Positions 42,985 to 53,154 of a DNA stretch of 64,000 nucleotides are shown piece by piece (position 1 is the first letter of the stretch; every line of letters starts with the position of its first letter). Source of the DNA: Rickettsiales bacterium (GTDB taxonomy: Bacteria > Pseudomonadota > Alphaproteobacteria > Rs-D84); assembly GCA_031266915.1 (NCBI GenBank), contig JAISAB010000007.1, forward strand, positions 908 to 64,907, written 5' to 3'. The notes under the pieces are model-generated. The model ran no database searches, was not told the origin of the DNA, and was given only the letters and a program-made list of their open reading frames with translations. Position numbers and translations under genes: made by a program.

Positions 42985-44001
42985 TTATTTTTTATAAGAT
43001 TCTACAAAACTTTCCGCTGCATTCTTGATTTTTTGCAGCGAATTTTCATAAACGGCGCAATCGCGCGCTATATCCGAACGATACGCGTCGCGCATGTTGT
43101 TGGCCATATAGTAACAGCCGCGCAGATGCTGGACGCAGTAATCGTGGCCGGCCACGAACGATGCCTGTCCGCGAACGCGGCTTTCGGTGTCCGCCCAGTT
43201 TATGTCCAGCGCTTGTTCCAGCTTGACCCAGGAATTGTCGCCCATATGAACGCCGATAACATCGTTCCAGTAATCGTTCATTTCGGCCTGCGACCATGTG
43301 CTCGTCCCCGCCTTCAGAGCCATGATTTGCTTAATCAAGTCGTCAATTGCGGGCTTATACGTCGCGTCGATTTGCGCCAGACGCGCGCTGCAGTAACAGC
43401 GCTTGTAATCCATTTCCTGGCGCTGGCAGTATCCGTCCATGCACGCCGTGTAATCAGCCATGCAGCGGTTCGCGGATAAGGGCTCGCCAGTCGATTGCAC
43501 TGCGGCACTCGTGACAGTTTCAGTGCGGTTCACATACCCGCTTTCGGGGCGTGCGCTGCGGGCGACCGAGCCGCCGGCAGTATTTCCGCGGGAAACCACG
43601 CGCCGCGTATTATTGGACGATGCGACGGCCGCATTTGATGCAAATGTGTTGCTGACCGCAGCGCGGGCGACACCGCTGGACGGTGCGATGGAACGGGCGG
43701 ATGCCGGCGCGACGGTCGCGCCGCCGGTTGCGCTGCGCGCCAACCCGGACCGCGATACGACGCGCCGGCTGTCACTGCCTGACGTCCGGGTCAGCGTGGA
43801 TACGGAATTCGGCGAAAAATCAGGCGTAACGCCGGGATTTAAATTTGTCCGCATGGTATTGTTCATCGCCGGATACATGATTTGATAGGCCTCTGGCGTG
43901 ACGAAATTCGCCACTGCTGTGCGCGCGGTTGCCGCGGCATCAGCCGCACCCGTGACAATCAGGGGCGCCAGAACAAGCAAAAAAATCAGAACCTTGGGCA
44001 T
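42985..44001 (-). CDS. Secreted hypothetical protein (Ala/Arg/Ser-rich linker plus Cys domain)
   Basis: Signal peptide; RRVVSR/ARSA repeats; CMADYTACMDGYC...RCYCS. Confidence 0.8.
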   Translation of the reverse strand: MPKVLIFLLVLAPLIVTGAADAAATARTAVANFVTPEAYQIMYPAMNNTMRTNLNPGVTPDFSPNSVSTLTRTSGSDSRRVVSRSGLARSATGGATVAPASARSIAPSSGVARAAVSNTFASNAAVASSNNTRRVVSRGNTAGGSVARSARPESGYVNRTETVTSAAVQSTGEPLSANRCMADYTACMDGYCQRQEMDYKRCYCSARLAQIDATYKPAIDDLIKQIMALKAGTSTWSQAEMNDYWNDVIGVHMGDNSWVKLEQALDINWADTESRVRGQASFVAGHDYCVQHLRGCYYMANNMRDAYRSDIARDCAVYENSLQKIKNAAESFVESYKK

Positions 44002-44097
44002 TTGTCGTATTGTAGGAAGTTCCTGCGCGACGGGCAAGCACAAAATGCATTTTGAATTTGCATTTGATAAAAAGATTGTTATAATTTCCGAGGTTAT

Positions 44098-46649: not shown

Positions 46650-46777
46650 TCGTTTCAGACTGCGTATCCGCCCCATATCGCCGACCATCCGCTTGTCGCT
46701 TGCACGACGGGGTGGTTCGAGACTTCGAGATTTAACTCTGACTATTTATTCTCTATTCTTTATTCTCTATTTTTGCC

Positions 46778-47019
46778 TTGCAATAATTTTATATTATTCA
46801 TATAATATCGGTGTCGCGGAGAGTTTCCGCGGCGAGGTGTCGAAACCTCTTTATCGGGCGTCATTGGTAAATATGGGGCGCGTATGCGCTTTTATTTTTG
46901 CCGTGATGAAACACAACTCCTGACAAGGTCAGGAGGGCACGCGAATATATTGAATAAGCGGCACAATTTCCTGATAATTGTTTCGAACCTCCTGACCACC
47001 AATTTTCATGGTGGTTTTT
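46778..47019 (+). promoter_or_regulatory. Sigma70 promoter plus attenuator-like leader, copy E, upstream of the DGR target
   Basis: TTGCAA-17 bp-TATAAT; GAGGTGTCGAAAC pairs with GTTTCGAACCTC; inner hairpin CTCCTGAC-AAG-GTCAGGAG; terminator ACCACCA...TGGTGGT plus T-tract. Confidence 0.7.
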
Positions 47020-47044
47020 CATTTGCCGATAAAGGAGGCTTTGA

Positions 47045-47593
47045 ATGAAGAAATCAACCATAGTTTTGCTTGCCTGGGCGTTCGCAATACAGGGTGCTTT
47101 TGCTGATATTAGTGGTTCGGATACTACCGGAGATTATACAATCTCTGGCTTCAGTAGCACGTCTCCGGCCACCGACTACTCCAATGGTATACATACAATT
47201 CAAAATACCAGTGACGGAAAGTACAGTACTGCTGGCACTTATAGCACATATAAAGGAGAAACAGTTTATTCTTATAGTGGTTATACCATCCCCAGTGATT
47301 TAACAGGGTATTATCTTCAAGATGTATGTGCCTCTGCAAGCGAAACTACTAGTTATGCAGAGACAAGCTGTAGTATTACGACTAATAATTCGAGTAGTAT
47401 TCTCAATAGTGGCGAAACACGTTGTTTGTGCCGTTTAAAGAGAAAAAGTGATAATGTAAGTGCTGCCGGTTGGGTCTTCGACTACTCGTACGGCCCGGCC
47501 GCCGATTGCGCGGACTATTGTGCGTCCTATTGCGCGATCAACGCCTACAGCGATTCCGTCTTCCGGTCGGCGTTGCTCGCGGCGTTCGAGTAG
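47045..47593 (+). CDS. DGR target: secreted S/T-rich protein with a C-terminal Cys-scaffold variable domain
   Basis: AAGGAGG RBS, signal peptide; the last ~43 codons are the VR (WVFDYSYGPAADCADYCASYCAINAYSDSVFRSALL). Confidence 0.92.
   Translation: MKKSTIVLLAWAFAIQGAFADISGSDTTGDYTISGFSSTSPATDYSNGIHTIQNTSDGKYSTAGTYSTYKGETVYSYSGYTIPSDLTGYYLQDVCASASETTSYAETSCSITTNNSSSILNSGETRCLCRLKRKSDNVSAAGWVFDYSYGPAADCADYCASYCAINAYSDSVFRSALLAAFE
47460..47589 (+). repeat. DGR variable repeat (VR)
   Basis: 130-bp ungapped match to the reverse complement of 50415-50544; 16 mismatches, all at TR adenines. Confidence 0.97.
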
Positions 47594-47594
47594 C

Positions 47595-47668
47595 CCTGAC
47601 GCCTGTCCGCGCATAGCGCGGTCAGGCCGTAACCGAGAGGGGGGATGGGGGGGATAGGTCCCCCCCAT
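47595..47668 (+). promoter_or_regulatory. Hairpins downstream of VR (candidate retrohoming recognition elements)
   Basis: CCGCGC-ATA-GCGCGG (47607-47621) nested in CCTGAC/GTCAGG; ATGGGGGGGA-TAGG-TCCCCCCCAT (47645-47668). Confidence 0.7.
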
Positions 47669-47711
47669 TGTTTTTTTATACTCTGTTTCGCAATATGTAT
47701 CTTGAGTAAAA

Positions 47712-48004
47712 GGGATTTGTGGTCTTTTATTTTTCAAATCACGACTCACGAATTACGGACCAACAATCCCCACGATTTTTTTGCGAACAAGTTCGCTAAA
47801 AAAACTCCCTCCTTTATCAAGGTGGGAACCCGCACGTATCAAGGGGGAAAGGCGCACGTGAGGCGGAGCAGACCAAGCCGGCTCTTTGTCCCCTCGCTGA
47901 CCCCCCTGTCTCTTCGCTGGCTCTTTGTCCCCCTCGGTAGAGGGGGATAGTTTTTGTTAGCGTCAGCGTTACAAAAACTTGGGGGATTCGTGGTTAAAAC
48001 TGAT
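47712..48004. repeat. Left arm of a long imperfect inverted repeat around the DUF559 gene
   Basis: Reverse complement aligns with 48391-48649 (e.g. tttttttgcgaacaagttcgctaaaaaaa). Confidence 0.88.
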
Positions 48005-48050
48005 AAAAAATCGGGGGGATTATTGGTTTCACTTATGATATAATTTTATC

Positions 48051-48401
48051 ATGTCCAAGCTTACCAATCTTGCACGCGTAAACAGAAAGAATCCGACTGA
48101 TTCGGAAAAGAAGTTATTTTATGCGCTGCGGGATTTGAAAATCGCGCACTTTCAGCGGCAGTTTCCAATAGGTGACAAATATATTGCAGACATAGCATGT
48201 CGAAAACACAGGCTGGTGATAGAATGCGATGGCAGCCAGCACTATACGGAATCTGGCTTGGCATCCGATTGGGCACGCGATGAATTTCTGCAGAGATATG
48301 GTTATAAAATCATTCGATTCAGCAATGGCGATATTATGAAGAATATAAACGGCGTGTTGTATGAAATATGTCGCGAGCTGGGGGTAGGGTATCAGTTTTA
48401 A
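48051..48401 (+). CDS. DUF559 (Vsr-like) endonuclease domain protein
   Basis: ARVNRKNPTDSEKKL, FQRQFPIGDKYIADIAC, LVIECDGSQH, RDEFL...GYKIIRFSN. Confidence 0.92.
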   Translation: MSKLTNLARVNRKNPTDSEKKLFYALRDLKIAHFQRQFPIGDKYIADIACRKHRLVIECDGSQHYTESGLASDWARDEFLQRYGYKIIRFSNGDIMKNINGVLYEICRELGVGYQF

Positions 48402-48876
48402 TCACAAATCCCCCAAATTTTTGTAACGCGCTTTGCGCGAACAAAAACTATCCCCCTTTAACAAGGGGGACAAGAGCCGAACCAAGGGGACAAGAGCCAG
48501 CTTGGTCTGTCCCGCCCCACGTACTGGTTCCCCCCCTTGATAAAGGGGGGTGATTTTTTTTAGCGAACTTGTTCGCAAAAAAATCGGGGGGATTATTGGT
48601 TAGTAATTCATGACTTGTGATTTGCAAGATAAAAGACCGCAAATCCCCCAAGTTTTTGTAACGCTGACGCTAACAAAAACTATCCCCCTTTAACAAGAGG
48701 GACAAGAGCCAGCCTGGTCTGTCCCGCCCCACGTGTGGCTTCACACCTTTTTTATCAAGGAGGGCAAAGCTCGCGGTGGGATATTGTCCCCCTCGATAGA
48801 GGGGGACAGATTGCCCGACGGCTATGCCGTCGCCGGCAATCTTGGGGGATTTATGGTCTTTTATTTTTTAAATCAC
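48391..48876. repeat. Right arm of the inverted repeat plus a partial tandem copy
   Basis: 48391-48649 is inverted relative to 47712-48004; 48641-48733 repeats 48406-48512; 48846-48876 directly repeats 47712-47742. Confidence 0.85.
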
Positions 48877-48909
48877 AATTCACATCCAACGAGGTGGACG
48901 ATTATAAGC

Positions 48910-49923
48910 CTAATTTTTTATCCCGGCTTTTCTTTTCAGCGATTCGAAATTCAGCCTGCGGCGCATGTTGTGCGAGCACGCGTGGCGCATCCATCCGTTC
49001 GCCGCCGCTATCTGTCCGCGGATCTCGTCCGCGCGTTCAGGCGGAATTTCTGGCAGCTTGCCGATGGCCAGCATTTTCTTTTTGATTCGTTTCATCGTCC
49101 TTTTGCGCAGCAGCACGAAATCCCGGAAATGTCTGTATCCCACAAAGTCCACGCCGTCGGATACGCGCGCTATCTCGCATTTCGAGAAAGTCAGCCCCAG
49201 CCGCCGTGCGATGAAATCGCGGATTTTTTCGCGCCATTCGCGCAGCTGGGCCTTGTCGTCCGCAAACAGCAGAAAGTCGTCGCAATATCGCAGATAGCGA
49301 TTCGCGTGCAGGATTGACCTGACGAAAATATCCAGCTGGTGCAGATACAGGTTGCCCAGCCATTGGCTGCACAGGTTGCCTATCGGAACATTCCGCCCGC
49401 CCGGGACGGAATATATTATGTCGCGCAGTATCTCCAGCATCCGCGCGTCAGGCACCGACTGTCCCGCGATTTCGAACATTATGTCGTGGCTTATGCTGGG
49501 ATAGAATTTGCGTATGTCGCACTTCAGAACGAATTCGCTTTTGCGCGCGAAATCCATGGCGCGCGCGCTGGCCGCGTGAAGCCCGCGCCCAGGAATGCAG
49601 GCGTACGAATCGCGGATGAATTCCCGCCGCCAAATCGGCGCCAGAATGTTCATAATCGCGTGATGGACTATTCTGTCCGGGCAAAAGGGCAGGATGTATA
49701 TCGTGCGCTTTTTGGGGTCGGTTATTTCCATAGTGCGGTAATCTGACGTGCGGAATTCTCCGGCCGCGACGATGCAGCGCAGTTTTTCCAGATTTTCATC
49801 GGAATTTTTCATGAATCGCGCGACCGCCGGATTCTTAAGCCGTCCGCGCGATGCATTCGCCAGCGCGACCGCGAAGTTGTCCGGCGATATGAATTCATCC
49901 CAAAGCGCGCCGCCGGCCTTCAT
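48910..49923 (-). CDS. DGR reverse transcriptase
   Basis: PKKRTIYIL, DRIVHHA, SYACIPGRG, LKCDIRKFYPSI, PIGNLCSQ (DGR GxxxSQ motif), YLRYCDDF, VDFVGY; 337 aa with no maturase or endonuclease extension. Confidence 0.96.
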   Translation of the reverse strand: MKAGGALWDEFISPDNFAVALANASRGRLKNPAVARFMKNSDENLEKLRCIVAAGEFRTSDYRTMEITDPKKRTIYILPFCPDRIVHHAIMNILAPIWRREFIRDSYACIPGRGLHAASARAMDFARKSEFVLKCDIRKFYPSISHDIMFEIAGQSVPDARMLEILRDIIYSVPGGRNVPIGNLCSQWLGNLYLHQLDIFVRSILHANRYLRYCDDFLLFADDKAQLREWREKIRDFIARRLGLTFSKCEIARVSDGVDFVGYRHFRDFVLLRKRTMKRIKKKMLAIGKLPEIPPERADEIRGQIAAANGWMRHACSHNMRRRLNFESLKRKAGIKN

Positions 49924-50219
49924 GAGAAAGTGAAGTATTTGTCTATCTTCACTATCTTGGCGCGGAACGGCATTTTGTCCGCGTACTTTTCACATTGGTC
50001 CATCAGGACCGCGCTGCCCGTGAACAGTATGCACAGCTGGCCGTCCATCTCGAACTGCAGATGCAGGCACATCGCGCCGATGTTGCGTTTTGACGCTATC
50101 GTCTTGTGCGCGCGGATTATCAGCGGCTTGTTCAAGATTTCTTCCATGCGTTTTTTCACGCCCTCCATCGCCGGCGATATTTCGGCGAAATCCGAAAATG
50201 AATGCAATTCCTGATTCAT
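49920..50219 (-). CDS. DGR accessory protein, predicted beta-rich and unlike Avd
   Basis: Lies between TR and RT; ATGA overlap with the RT start; AAGGA RBS; CLHLQFEMDGQLCILFTGSAVLMDQ...MPFRAKIVKIDKYFTFS. Confidence 0.8.
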   Translation of the reverse strand: MNQELHSFSDFAEISPAMEGVKKRMEEILNKPLIIRAHKTIASKRNIGAMCLHLQFEMDGQLCILFTGSAVLMDQCEKYADKMPFRAKIVKIDKYFTFS

Positions 50220-50414
50220 TACGTTTCCTTTTTGCTTTCAAGGCCCCGGGCGGCGTGATGCCGCGGCGGGGCCTTCCCGGTAATCGTGTTTTTCCGAACC
50301 GCCCCGCGTATATGCGGGACATACGAAAGGGCCGCGCGCCCAGCCCTGACAGGCTTTACATGGCGGCATACTGCCGCCGCCCCCCGGGTCGGCGAAACTT
50401 GTTTCCCGCAGGTA

Positions 50415-50544
50415 TCGAACGCCGCGAGCAACGCCGACCGGAAGTCGGAATTGTTGTTGGCGTTGTTCGCGCAATTGTTCGCACAATTGTTCGCGCAATT
50501 GGCGGCCGTGCTGTTCGAGTTGTTGAAGACCCAACCGGCAGCAC
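50415..50544 (-). repeat. DGR template repeat (TR)
   Basis: In the VR frame it has 13 AAC/AAT codons plus AGC, ACG and GAC; no adenine at third codon positions. Confidence 0.97.
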
Positions 50545-50889
50545 GCAACGCGTACGGCGAAGCGGCCCGCAGCCCACGCCGTTTCTGGCGCAGAAACATT
50601 ATCGGTGAAAACAAACATCCGCGCACTCGGATTATTTTAGAAAAAGGAAATAAATCCAAAGATTTGTGTACAATAATTGGTAATAATGGGAAAGGTTCGC
50701 AATTTTTTGGCCTGATTCGCATGGCAATCATAAATCGGAAGCAGGGTATTTATCCGATAAAACCCCATTTCATATTCAAATGATATTTTCGAACGCAAAT
50801 GACATAAAATTCATAATTCAATATAAAAAATATTGAAATTTTCATAAATTCCTAATAAAATGTCTTACATCGCATAAGGGTATTTCGCC

Positions 50890-51318
50890 ATGAGTCGCAC
50901 TTTTGATTTAGCCGACAAGCTGATTTATTATACTTTGGTTTATTTGGATAAAAACGGCGCAACCCGTATTTCCAAACTTTGCGATAATATGAAAAAAGAT
51001 TTGAAATTCGACGACTGGGAACGGGCTGTTTATCCCAAGACCGGCAACGTTCGCTGGGATAGAATGCTGTTGTCGTTTTCGTTGGATTTGGACAAGGCCG
51101 GATGGATTGCGAAAAGACGCAAAGTCTGGGATATTACGCCCAAAGGCAAGCAGGCACTGGGCGAGCTGCGCGAACCGTCGAAATTGCGCCAGGAAGCGGC
51201 GCGGATGTATAAAATATGGAACGCTATCCCGCGTGAAGAGCTGCTGCGCCGCAAGGCGGCGGAAAAAGCTGCCAAAGCAAATGCGGATAATGCCGGGTTG
51301 GCCAAAAGCAAGCCATGA
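50890..51318 (+). CDS. Mrr N-terminal (winged-helix) domain protein
   Basis: YPKTGNVRW...LDKAGWIAKRRKVWDITPKGKQAL; no nuclease domain follows. Confidence 0.7.
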   Translation: MSRTFDLADKLIYYTLVYLDKNGATRISKLCDNMKKDLKFDDWERAVYPKTGNVRWDRMLLSFSLDLDKAGWIAKRRKVWDITPKGKQALGELREPSKLRQEAARMYKIWNAIPREELLRRKAAEKAAKANADNAGLAKSKP

Positions 51319-52640
51319 AAGTTTATCTGAAGCAGAATGTTTACGAAGCCGCGGTCGATAGAATCAAGTTTTGCTTTGATAATTTCGAAAATGTCCTTGT
51401 CGCGTTCAGCGGCGGAAAAGACAGCGGCGTTCTTTTGAACATATGCTATGGCTGCGCGCGCGAATCGGGAATGCTGCATAAAATGGCGGTTTATCATATC
51501 GACTATGAAGCGCAATATCAAAAGACAACGGAATATGTAACGGAAACGTTTAATTCGTTCGAAGGCATCCGAAAATTTTGGCTGTGCCTGCCTATATCGG
51601 CGCAATGCGCGATAAATATGCGAAATCCCGGCGTTTGGTTTCCGTGGGACAGGGAAGAGCAGGATATTTGGGTTCGTCCGATTCCCGAGCACGAGGCTGT
51701 GATTCATCAGCACAATGCCCCTTTTCACTTTAATGAAAGAGCCTCTGATTACGAGATGCAGGACATTTTCTGTCAGTGGTTTTCCAGGAAATACGGAACA
51801 ACGGCCATACTGATAGGCATCAGGACGGACGAAAGTCTGGTGCGGTATCGCATAATTGCCAGCGACCGCAAAACAAACACATATGGAAATAATCAATGGA
51901 TGACCGGCGTCGGGGACGGCTTGACTTACAAGGCGTATCCGATTTACGATTGGTCGACCAAGGATATTTGGACGGCGAACGCGAAATTCGGATTCGCGTA
52001 CAACAGGCTTTACGATTTGATGTACCAGGCCGGCGTCAAAATCGATAATATGCGCGTGGCCAGTCCGTTCAACGACTGCGCAGTGACCAGTCTGAAATTG
52101 TACAAGGTCATCGAACCGGATACATGGGCGCGCTTGGTCGGCCGGGTAAACGGCGTCAACTTTTCAGGGATTTATGGCGGAACGACGGCTATGGGGTGGC
52201 GCAGGATACAGCTGCCCCAAGGGTACACTTGGAAAAAATACTGCCGGTTTTTATTGAATTCGCTGGACGACGACGTGCGCAGAAATTATGAGAAAAAGCT
52301 GAGGGTAAGCATAGATTTCTGGAAGCGCAAGGGCGGCGTTTTGTTAGAGAATACCGTTCGGGAAATCGAAAAATCCAAAATTTCTTTCAAAAACAAAGGA
52401 CGCGTCAGCAAAATGTCCGACAAAGACGTGATTACGTTTAACGAATACCCCGATGATTTGGATATAGCGGATTTCAAAAGCGTGCCGACGTACAAGCGCA
52501 TGTGCATATGTATCTTGAAGAACGATTATTTCTGCAAATATATGGGATTTGCCGCGACTTCGAAAGAAGTTCGCCTGCGGAAAGCGGCGATGGACAAATA
52601 TAAAAACTTATGGTGTAAAAATGAAAAGCCCCGTTTATAG
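51315..52640 (+). CDS. PAPS-reductase/DUF3440 protein (IbrA/YbdN family)
   Basis: VAFSGGKDSG PP-loop, IDYEAQY, IGIRTDES, YPIYDW, LYDLMYQAG, RMCICILKNDYFCKYMGF. Confidence 0.9.
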   Translation: MKVYLKQNVYEAAVDRIKFCFDNFENVLVAFSGGKDSGVLLNICYGCARESGMLHKMAVYHIDYEAQYQKTTEYVTETFNSFEGIRKFWLCLPISAQCAINMRNPGVWFPWDREEQDIWVRPIPEHEAVIHQHNAPFHFNERASDYEMQDIFCQWFSRKYGTTAILIGIRTDESLVRYRIIASDRKTNTYGNNQWMTGVGDGLTYKAYPIYDWSTKDIWTANAKFGFAYNRLYDLMYQAGVKIDNMRVASPFNDCAVTSLKLYKVIEPDTWARLVGRVNGVNFSGIYGGTTAMGWRRIQLPQGYTWKKYCRFLLNSLDDDVRRNYEKKLRVSIDFWKRKGGVLLENTVREIEKSKISFKNKGRVSKMSDKDVITFNEYPDDLDIADFKSVPTYKRMCICILKNDYFCKYMGFAATSKEVRLRKAAMDKYKNLWCKNEKPRL

Positions 52641-53154
52641 CGTGATAAGCGTTCCAGTCGAACAAATACAGGCGAATGCCTATAACCCGAATATGGTGGC
52701 CCCGCCGGAAATGGACTTGTTGTACAAAAGCATCAAGGAAGACGGATATACCATGCCGATTGTCTGCTATCGTCTGGCCGACGGCCGCTATGAAATCGTG
52801 GACGGGTTTCATCGCTATATGGTCATGCGCACTCACAGCGATATTTACGAGCGCGAAGGCGGAAAAATGCCCGTCGTCGTCATCGACAGGGACATATCCA
52901 ACCGAATGGCGTCGACAATCCGGCATAACCGCGCCCGCGGTTCTCACAGCATAGAACTTATGGTAAATATAGTGCGGGATTTGGTCGCCGGCGGCATGTC
53001 CGACGCGTGGATTATGAACAACATAGGCATGGATACGAACGAGCTGCTGCGGCTGAAACAAATCAGCGGATTGCAGAGCCTTTTTGCCGACCGTGAATTC
53101 AGCAAATCATGGGTCGCGGACATTAAAAAGACTTATGCAAAAAAACAGTCCTGA
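52621..53154 (+). CDS. ParB/Srx-like domain protein (IbrB/YbdM family)
   Basis: ANAYNPNMVAPPEM, DGYTMPIV, IVDGFHR, RMASTIRHNRARG. Confidence 0.9.
   Translation: MKSPVYSVISVPVEQIQANAYNPNMVAPPEMDLLYKSIKEDGYTMPIVCYRLADGRYEIVDGFHRYMVMRTHSDIYEREGGKMPVVVIDRDISNRMASTIRHNRARGSHSIELMVNIVRDLVAGGMSDAWIMNNIGMDTNELLRLKQISGLQSLFADREFSKSWVADIKKTYAKKQS

Follow-up and report, generated by a model that had tools for sequence, protein, structure and literature searches.

To our knowledge, every variable protein of a diversity-generating retroelement (DGR) whose structure has been solved has a C-type-lectin fold, and we know of no characterised DGR in which the varied surface is other than the ligand-binding site. 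Here we describe a DGR in a 64,000-nucleotide (nt) stretch of a Rickettsiales bacterium genome (the window; contig C14, positions 908-64907, from a 1.09-Mb genome in 26 contigs that is 95% complete). Its target gene ends in a cysteine-rich domain with a differently predicted fold. DGRs as a kind are known; what would be new is a non-lectin variable scaffold, as predicted here, together with a cassette lineage of its own. We lean towards the reading that DGRs have recruited a second, structurally unrelated scaffold, a Cys-pinned sheet-plus-helix of about 95 residues with about 16 randomised residues mostly on the helix face. It would belong to a separate DGR lineage lacking Avd in Enterousia-like gut Alphaproteobacteria, in which frozen families of former targets around one live gene form a stored repertoire and its generator.

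The comparison set of C-type-lectin-fold DGR proteins consisted of Mtd (Bordetella phage BPP-1), TvpA, LdtA, AvpA and TaqVP; variable proteins with this fold are treated in PMC2408619, PMC5006420, PMC6328139 and PMC5758913. The classes of variable repeat (VR) given in the accessible part of Wu et al. 2018 (PMC5758913) are CLec1-3, Ig1-2 and UVR1-6. According to the accessible text of Roux et al. 2021 (PMC8144416), annotated VR regions are systematically lectin-fold and other uncharacterised VR domains are probably lectin variants too, and a 2024 survey places a few VRs within other annotated domains. Like Ig1/Ig2, UVR1-6 and the unassigned VRs of the survey in the available text of PMC8144416, the VR described here could not be placed in the C-type lectins by sequence. 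Unlike the Ig and UVR classes of Wu et al., which come from bacteria of the candidate phyla radiation and from phages, the present class, searched for with a strict template-repeat pattern, was found only in metagenome-assembled genomes (MAGs) of gut Alphaproteobacteria.

Template and variable repeats of the cassette

The element consists of the following parts.

47045-47593, plus strand: DGR target gene, 182 amino acids (aa), putatively secreted (from the list of open reading frames, ORFs)
47300-47590, plus strand: Cys-rich C-terminal domain of the target, residues 86-182, about 95 aa, of an unnamed family
47460-47589, plus strand: VR, 130 nt, codons 140-182 of the 182 in the target gene
48910-49923, minus strand: DGR reverse transcriptase (RT), 337 aa (Pfam RVT_1, E 2.5e-16; phrog_1423 'Reverse transcriptase', E 1.2e-100)
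49920-50219, minus strand: accessory gene, 99 aa, between the template repeat and the RT gene, not Avd-like by sequence
50415-50544, minus strand: template repeat (TR), on the strand opposite to the VR, with the translation AAGWVFNNSNSTAANCANNCANNCANNANNNSDFRSALLAAF

On the minus strand the order is TR, accessory gene, RT; the one live target is encoded 1.3 kb away on the other strand. The RT translation holds YCDD and IGNLCSQ, the latter an instance of IGxxxSQ, which we take to be the signature of DGR reverse transcriptases. An ungapped comparison of the VR (47460-47589, plus) with the TR (50544-50415, minus) found 16 mismatches over 130 nt and no gaps. Sixteen of the 30 TR adenines were changed in the VR and none of the 100 other TR bases. 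Adenines make up 23% of the positions and account for all 16 mismatches, which excludes chance as the source of this pattern. In a BLAST search of the 1.09-Mb genome with the TR, the only VR free of non-adenine changes was that of the target gene, and the next-best match had 22 non-adenine mismatches. A 170-aa ORF running over the TR (50219-50731, minus strand) was considered as a gene and rejected, because it is without the CWCR part of the domain and its homology to the target starts exactly at the TR.

Adenine-free TR codons fix A-A-G-W-V-F, S148, A152-A153, C155-A156, C159-A160 and C163-A164, and further along A167, S171 and F-R-S-A-L-L-A-A-F. The variable codons are 13 AAY together with AGC, ACG and GAC, and the variable positions of the VR are 146, 147, 149-151, 154, 157, 158, 161, 162, 165, 166, 168-170 and 172. 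Without any stop codon, the TR can specify 15^13 x 4^3 different proteins (about 1.2 x 10^17), and the codon design of the VR at the 3′ end of the target gene avoids stops. A first-pass annotation, made by a model from the letters of the window, had taken this gene for a DGR target in which adenine-free codons hold W-V-F, the cysteines, the alanines and FRSALL, and the TR codon map bears this out.

Following the published DGR mechanism, TR RNA would be reverse-transcribed with errors at adenines, and the mutagenised complementary DNA would replace the last 130 nt of the target gene. The adenine-free codons would fix a core of W143-V144-F145, C155/C159/C163, the Ala residues and F173-R174; the AAY codons and the three single-adenine codons would randomise the end of a strand (146, 147), the loop after it (149-151), the long helix along one face (154, 157, 158, 161, 162, 165, 166, 168-170) and residue 172.

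In several respects the target resembles the C-type-lectin DGR proteins. Its VR encodes the very end of the protein, the TR sets AAY-rich codons between scaffold codons that contain no adenine, only adenines are substituted, the protein appears to be exported, and a hairpin comes after the invariant GC-rich stretch that closes the VR. The end of the VR (47562-47589) encodes F-R and then small hydrophobic residues in a GC-rich, adenine-poor stretch. C-type-lectin VRs likewise end in G-F-R, and the F-R ending could reflect a shared demand of homing at the TR 3′ end rather than one of protein structure. Two hairpins follow.

47599-47630, plus strand: GC-rich hairpin (stem CCGCGC/GCGCGG, loop ATA, with an outer extension), candidate target-recognition hairpin
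47644-47669, plus strand: terminator-like hairpin with a T-run, after the target gene (consensus scan)

The first of these lies 10 nt past the end of the VR/TR homology. Its regional z-score of -0.52 (DNA fold) is not significant, and a role in target recognition is proposed by analogy with the DGR target hairpins described in the accessible part of PMC3240598.

Evidence of recent activity came from one public sequencing run (X1, labelled termite gut metagenome), the only one that contains the locus. The VR variants were taken from its contigs over 46900-47900, not from raw reads. One contig, 1953 nt long, covers the gene up to 47579 and shows 18 differences from the window and no gaps; two short pieces (85 and 82 nt), each with 11 differences, lie over 47498-47582. 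Among the VR differences listed, 18 of 18 are at TR-adenine sites (16 distinct positions); nine read A, and nine read bases present in neither the window VR nor the TR. The 82-nt piece has letters absent from both. As the listed differences are confined to TR-adenine sites and nine match neither repeat, the assembled VR is accompanied by at least two others. Two points weigh against this evidence. Run X1 may be the source of the assembly, so that its variants are not independent of it, and one of the short pieces is probably the TR itself, since the TR and the window VR differ at exactly 11 positions in that span. The other X1 differences listed, in the leader of the gene (46969-47024) and at 47405-47411, probably come from paralogues placed at 80% likeness. 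Two other runs (X2 and X3) contained next to none of the locus, with short leader pieces only, and give no evidence of habitat. We regard our best explanation as a whole, which includes a complete and recently active DGR, as likely.

Predicted fold and cysteines of the variable domain

The target protein had no match in Pfam (E <= 0.01), in NCBIfam or among PDB sequences, and an index of 5.8 billion proteins contained only four relatives, at 48-54% identity. Two candidate relatives, phrog_30608 (function unassigned, E 0.0016) and BMP-6 (E 0.47), were rejected as noise. AlphaFold2 modelled the whole target with a predicted local distance difference test score (pLDDT) of 86.9 and a predicted template-modelling score (pTM) of 0.78 from a 77-sequence alignment, with strands at 126-133, 138-140 and 143-148 and helices at 152-169 and 171-179. 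For the domain (residues 86-182, 125 sequences) the scores were 91.4 and 0.82, and the elements, in domain numbering, were strands 4-11, 41-48 and 58-63 and helices 67-84 and 86-94. The domain model agrees with the whole-protein model in three strands, then a long helix and a short helix. In the predicted fold the three strands form a sheet, against which pack the long helix and the short one at the C-terminus.

Most of the VR is predicted to be helix. Taking 100 degrees per helical residue, variable residues 154, 157, 158, 161, 162, 165, 166, 168 and 169 would take up one half of the helix surface and Ala 152, 153, 156, 160, 164 and 167 the opposite, buried side, with C155, C159 and C163 where the two sides meet. 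Through residues 146, 147 and 149-151 the variable surface would extend over the strand end and the loop. We infer that this contiguous surface is the ligand-binding face. The first-pass annotation had seen AAY-derived variable pairs with helical periodicity, and positions 154, 157, 158, 161, 162, 165 and 166 do follow an i, i+3, i+4 spacing within the AlphaFold2 helix 152-169. It had also described the binder as a small disulfide-stapled helix. The helical VR stood up, the unit turned out to be an alpha/beta domain of about 95 aa and not just a helix, and the stapling is a conjecture to which we return below. The same annotation's 'antibody-like binder' would be a reading of the architecture only.

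Unlike the C-type-lectin DGR proteins, the target is predicted to have the order strand-strand-strand-helix-helix with its variable residues mostly on a helix face; it also differs from them in having five to six conserved cysteines, an accessory protein other than Avd and no sequence match to a lectin model. Affibodies are engineered binders with randomised residues on an exposed helix face over a small rigid core. By analogy, the target too would vary an exposed helix face over a small rigid core. Unlike affibodies it is natural and retroelement-driven, and its variable surface would consist of one long helix, a strand end and a loop on a sheet, probably pinned by cystines.

Fold searches with Foldseek returned best E-values of 0.17 for the whole-protein model against the PDB, 0.8 for the domain model against the PDB and 0.27 for the domain model against the viral BFVD. 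None of the fold matches listed was a C-type lectin, an FGE-sulfatase, Mtd, TvpA or an Ig chain, a result that excludes no fold. In the models the VR runs over the end of a strand, a loop and a long helix, and no significant match to the CLec or Ig folds, which would have spoken against the scaffold proposed in the first-pass annotation, was obtained. Several points limit the case for a new fold. The fold of the target is a prediction, and a weak or missing match is no proof of novelty, as short domains score low. In addition, the single-sequence model of the target in the ESM Atlas was poor (pTM 0.29), so the confidence of the AlphaFold2 models rests on the alignments. The Atlas gave no usable feature match for the target, with all TM-scores at 0.47 or lower.

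The domain could instead be a highly diverged or miniaturised C-type-lectin fold, with the AlphaFold2 topology wrong or the likeness too remote to be seen. Such an origin was proposed for uncharacterised VR domains generally in the accessible text of Roux et al. 2021 (PMC8144416). The ending of the VR in F-R and small hydrophobic residues resembles the G-F-R ending of CLec repeats, and remote similarity can escape fold searches. In C-type lectins the helices lie between the first strands. Here two independent confident models put both helices C-terminal, after three strands, an order that differs from the lectin topology, in a domain of about 95 aa. Furthermore, none of 77 family members matched the FGE-sulfatase, DUF1566, Fib_succ_major or lectin models at E <= 0.1. 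We consider a disguised lectin quite unlikely. Nor did the Ig domain of Pfam match the target or any of the 77 members, and no Pfam or NCBIfam model recurred over the domain in them (the top model, found in 2 of the 77, was spurious).

The target has seven cysteines (C95, C108, C127, C129, C155, C159 and C163), and position 47423, from which the first-pass annotation counted the domain, is the codon of C127 in a C-L-C motif. Upstream of the VR that annotation had listed this motif, which is present (C127 and C129), and three further cysteines, of which only two were seen (C95 and C108). Column conservation is given as a share of those aligned domain copies, 202-222 in number, that have a residue in the column. 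C155 and C159 were kept in 100% of copies, C129 in 99%, C163 in 98%, W143 in 94%, C127 in 93%, R174 in 90% and V144 in 82%. Family members usually have an upstream cysteine, and C108 is absent in 5 of the 16 paralogues of the genome itself.

We infer that the conserved cysteines pin the helix to the sheet through disulfides. Several findings weigh against this. The C95-equivalent and C127 are both present in 189 copies, both absent in 8 and mixed in 17, and the subfamily without them retains all three helix cysteines. C129 and C163 are lost jointly in two domain copies, and one paralogue in the genome (L029) is without C127 and C159. These co-loss patterns are ambiguous on pairing. Searches of the 95%-complete genome found neither DsbB nor VKOR and a single DsbA-like thioredoxin-fold gene. 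Finally, the four closest relatives of the RT (L037, L039, L042 and L043) have TRs without the helix cysteines, and disulfides are therefore not essential to the scaffold everywhere. 'Cys-pinned' likely holds for the target protein without being essential to the scaffold.

The cysteines might also bind a metal or cofactor, which would make the domain a metal-stabilised module. The persistence of C129, C155, C159 and C163 where the C95-equivalent and C127 are lost would fit such a site, as would the failure to find DsbB and VKOR. Spaced at i, i+4 and i+8, the helix cysteines should lie about 6 and 12 Å apart, so they cannot share one metal, and no His or Asp is conserved beside them. The apparent signal peptide and the DsbA-like gene also speak against such a site, and we regard metal binding as very unlikely.

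Domain family, paralogues and cassette lineage

The domain shows the motif C..CWCR..WVF..CxxxCxxxC..FR, and its family consensus reads ..CS..G..GNP..G..CWC(R/K)..(T)....WVF....S...C...C...CA.......FR.A(L/V)F. A profile built from 16 own-genome sequences matched 503 of 1.84 billion representative proteins at E <= 1e-3 and 48 at E <= 1e-10. A local hidden Markov model search of the best 150 matches and the own-genome proteins delimited 222 domain copies in 151 proteins, with up to five copies per protein and in proteins of up to 4750 aa. In 122 of the 151 proteins the end of a copy lies no more than 10 residues from the C-terminus, and some of the proteins bear collagen or Listeria-Bacteroides repeats. 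A C-terminal place on fibre-like and collagen-containing proteins is that of a distal binding head. Mean entropy was 3.54 bits in the 16 DGR-variable columns versus 2.03 in the 26 fixed columns (residues 140-181; 222 copies). Phage baseplate proteins were tried as relatives and rejected, the best match of the paralogue profile among PDB sequences having an E-value of only 1.6.

In the supplementary sequences of Wu et al., GWVF, SWVF, PWVF, FRSAL and FRAAV occur in unrelated contexts only. The supplements of Roux et al., with supplementary files 9 and 12 outside the search, gave no match to the class besides the word 'termite' in the list of metagenome datasets, and the class may be among the unannotated clusters of that study. 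We found no paper, in the text searched, in which this domain is said to be varied by a DGR, and no described target class with this motif turned up in the papers and supplements covered, in keeping with the first-pass annotation, which had taken the scaffold to be new.

Within the genome, 16 proteins carry the domain, target included. Thirteen are small, namely 11 full-length copies with the target among them, one split by a frameshift (contig C2) and one cut by a contig end. The split copy (G000:C2:4885-5432, minus strand) has an 84-aa N-terminal and a 113-aa C-terminal piece in different frames and is probably a frameshifted pseudogene. The other three are fibre-like, with the same C-terminal domain and a different N-terminal half that gives weak PHROG tail-fibre matches. 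Profiling the domain and counting paralogues, as the first-pass annotation had proposed, accordingly yielded 13 small and 3 fibre-like copies here and 503 proteins elsewhere.

When 12 paralogue 3′ ends were compared with the TR, 198 of 354 adenine sites were changed (56%) versus 278 of 1177 others (24%). At the AAY positions, 130 of 153 paralogue codons kept a pyrimidine as third base and had the first two bases scrambled; for control codons the count was 184 of 197. Several paralogues are followed by a related GCCTGTCCGC sequence after the stop codon. To judge from their sequences, the other paralogues are best read as former DGR targets, now frozen. On the other side, the enrichment at adenine sites could also be ordinary surface variability.

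Frozen, diverse copies are typical of variation repertoires. The variable face could instead be an exposed epitope varied for escape from phages, predators or host factors, with the paralogues as an antigenic-variation repertoire. The 13 small and 3 fibre-like copies in 1.09 Mb stand behind a shared, regulated-looking leader, which would fit such a repertoire. In every characterised DGR known to us, however, the varied surface is the ligand-binding site. The domain sits distally at the C-terminus of fibre-like and of collagen-containing proteins, where binding heads sit, and some 10^17 variants on one contiguous face are not needed for escape. We think an escape function unlikely and keep to a ligand-binding face.

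The class recurs in relatives. In a family sample of 101 genomes (this one and 100 others of the same taxonomic family), the domain profile matched 54 at E <= 1e-3, the highest count in a single genome being 26, and the RT matched 28 at E <= 1e-20. Twenty RT loci of about 4 kb each, this one included, were examined. Nine have a TR/VR pair with differences confined to adenines, and all nine encode this domain class; a domain or TR match was present in 13. A strict TR pattern (N-C-A-N-N-C-A-N-N-C-A-N-N, back-translated) was also searched in genomes of 185,579 species. It was found at 16 loci, all in MAGs titled Candidatus Enterousia, Alphaproteobacteria, Rickettsiales or uncultured proteobacterium, and the N codon positions are identical across these TRs. 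The RT and accessory genes lie within 3 kb in 13 of the 16, and 11 have TR/VR pairs. Because the genomes overlap (L065 and L052, for instance, are the same), these counts are not independent of those from the family sample. The association of the domain with DGRs, which the first-pass annotation had left to be looked for, was found repeatedly, as a DGR target in related genomes. The strict pattern returned nothing from 2.9 million viral contigs. When 300 genomes from other families in the same phylum were sampled, with at most 11 candidates per genome scored, the profile matched none at E <= 1e-5, and a pattern search from alignment A2 gave 73 pattern matches with no relative among them.

The RTs of L037, L039, L042 and L043 are 63-66% identical to that studied here. 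Their Cys-less TRs end in ...NSD(E/F)R..LLAAF (..NSDERGALLAAF, ..AFRAAFDT), which makes a common origin evident. In L037, L039 and L042 the Cys-less TR lies upstream of the accessory gene. L043 has a TR at 417-542 and a VR at 1242-1367, with 18 of 28 adenines changed and no other bases. On the sequence evidence, a TR of this type appears to be a Cys-less version of the same variable helix.

The accessory protein Avd is present in most but not all DGRs, according to the accessible part of PMC5758913. No ORF of our cassette matched it in Pfam or PHROG, and the 99-aa accessory protein had no match in Pfam, PHROG or PDB sequences. A homologue of this protein lies directly upstream of the RT in 15 of 19 foreign RT loci of related genomes. 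Its closest ESM Atlas clusters (feature scores 0.94-0.97, structure TM 0.89) comprise proteins of about 95-100 aa, mostly viral, labelled PF28814; the label is from the Atlas, the family being absent from the Pfam copy used. The PF28814-labelled module is also found fused to reverse transcriptases of 431 and 522 aa. The accessory protein may replace Avd in this DGR lineage. As the module is mostly viral and is also found RT-fused, the layout of TR, accessory gene and RT without Avd would mark a distinct, phage-related DGR lineage.

A second DGR-like cassette was observed in the genome (L010, G000:C25:29567-33376), with parts at 468-1100, about 1100-1290 and 1288-2511. An Avd homologue (phrog_3206, E 2.5e-15) belongs to it, as does an RT that shares 32% identity with ours, and an N-rich stretch (..YLWSSSDNGNNNVRTVNENGNKN) looks like the TR of another VR type.

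Leader, flanking genes and implications

Upstream of the domain, the target gene has the following features.

46778-46806, plus strand: promoter-like site TTGCAA-17-TATAAT upstream of the target gene (consensus scan)
46807-47044, plus strand: structured 5′ leader of about 240 nt, common to target and small paralogues, with hairpins and the ribosome-binding site AGGAGG
47045-47104, plus strand: putative signal peptide, residues 1-20, MKKSTIVLLAWAFAIQGAFA, then DI, with an A-x-A cleavage site

By its sequence, the N-terminus (MKKSTIVLLAWAFAIQGAFA/DI) would be a Sec signal peptide. It is conserved in the small paralogues, and the pLDDT is below 50 for residues 10-17. The CTTGCAA...ATATAAT block is also conserved upstream of paralogues. 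The leader contains a hairpin CTCCTGAC/GTCAGGAG at about 46917-46935 and a terminator-like CCACCA..TGGTGG-T5 hairpin at 46994-47016, after which comes the ribosome-binding site. Paralogue upstream regions were aligned (for example G000:C12:20250-20569 and C23:34608-34927), and the leader copy of the paralogue at C12:20570 showed a triple compensatory change. There CTCCTGAC and GTCAGGAG, with a second CCTCCTGAC beside the terminator-like hairpin, are replaced by CTCCAACC, GGTTGGAG and CCTCCAACC. Such co-varying segments suggest an alternative-pairing attenuator. Rfam gave no match over 46650-51000.

Between the target and RT genes lies an ORF for a DUF559 endonuclease (48051-48401, plus strand, E 2.1e-28), and a hairpin repeat, TTGTCCCCCT..AGGGGGATAG-TTTTTGTT, occurs in both orientations at 47925-47950 (plus), 48448-48473 (minus) and 48680-48705 (minus). 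Together the ORF and the flanking repeats look like a small element inserted within the DGR locus. Beside the TR, plus-strand ORFs at 50890-53154 encode an Mrr_N domain (50890-51318), a PAPS-reductase/DUF3440 protein (51315-52640, E 1.9e-83) and a ParB_N protein (52549-53154), the last two of which we take to be an IbrA/IbrB-like pair. Another Cys-rich family is apparently present in the genome, in secreted proteins at 42985-44043 (minus) and L010:2583-3809 (plus) that have Ala/Ser/Arg-rich low-complexity regions followed by a C..C....C...RC.CS part.

A variable surface displayed on a helix outside the lectin fold would mean that the retroelement can work with more than one fold, and it would bear directly on whether the lectin fold is special in tolerating variation. 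If this reading is true, the Cys-less TRs of the closest RT relatives would show helix display, and not the cystines, to be the essential invention. Those who engineer binders with reprogrammed DGRs would also gain a very small natural scaffold in the domain (about 95 aa, about 10^17 variants). For small-genome gut Alphaproteobacteria, 16 paralogues in 1.09 Mb behind a conserved leader RNA would point to a heavily invested surface-recognition system.

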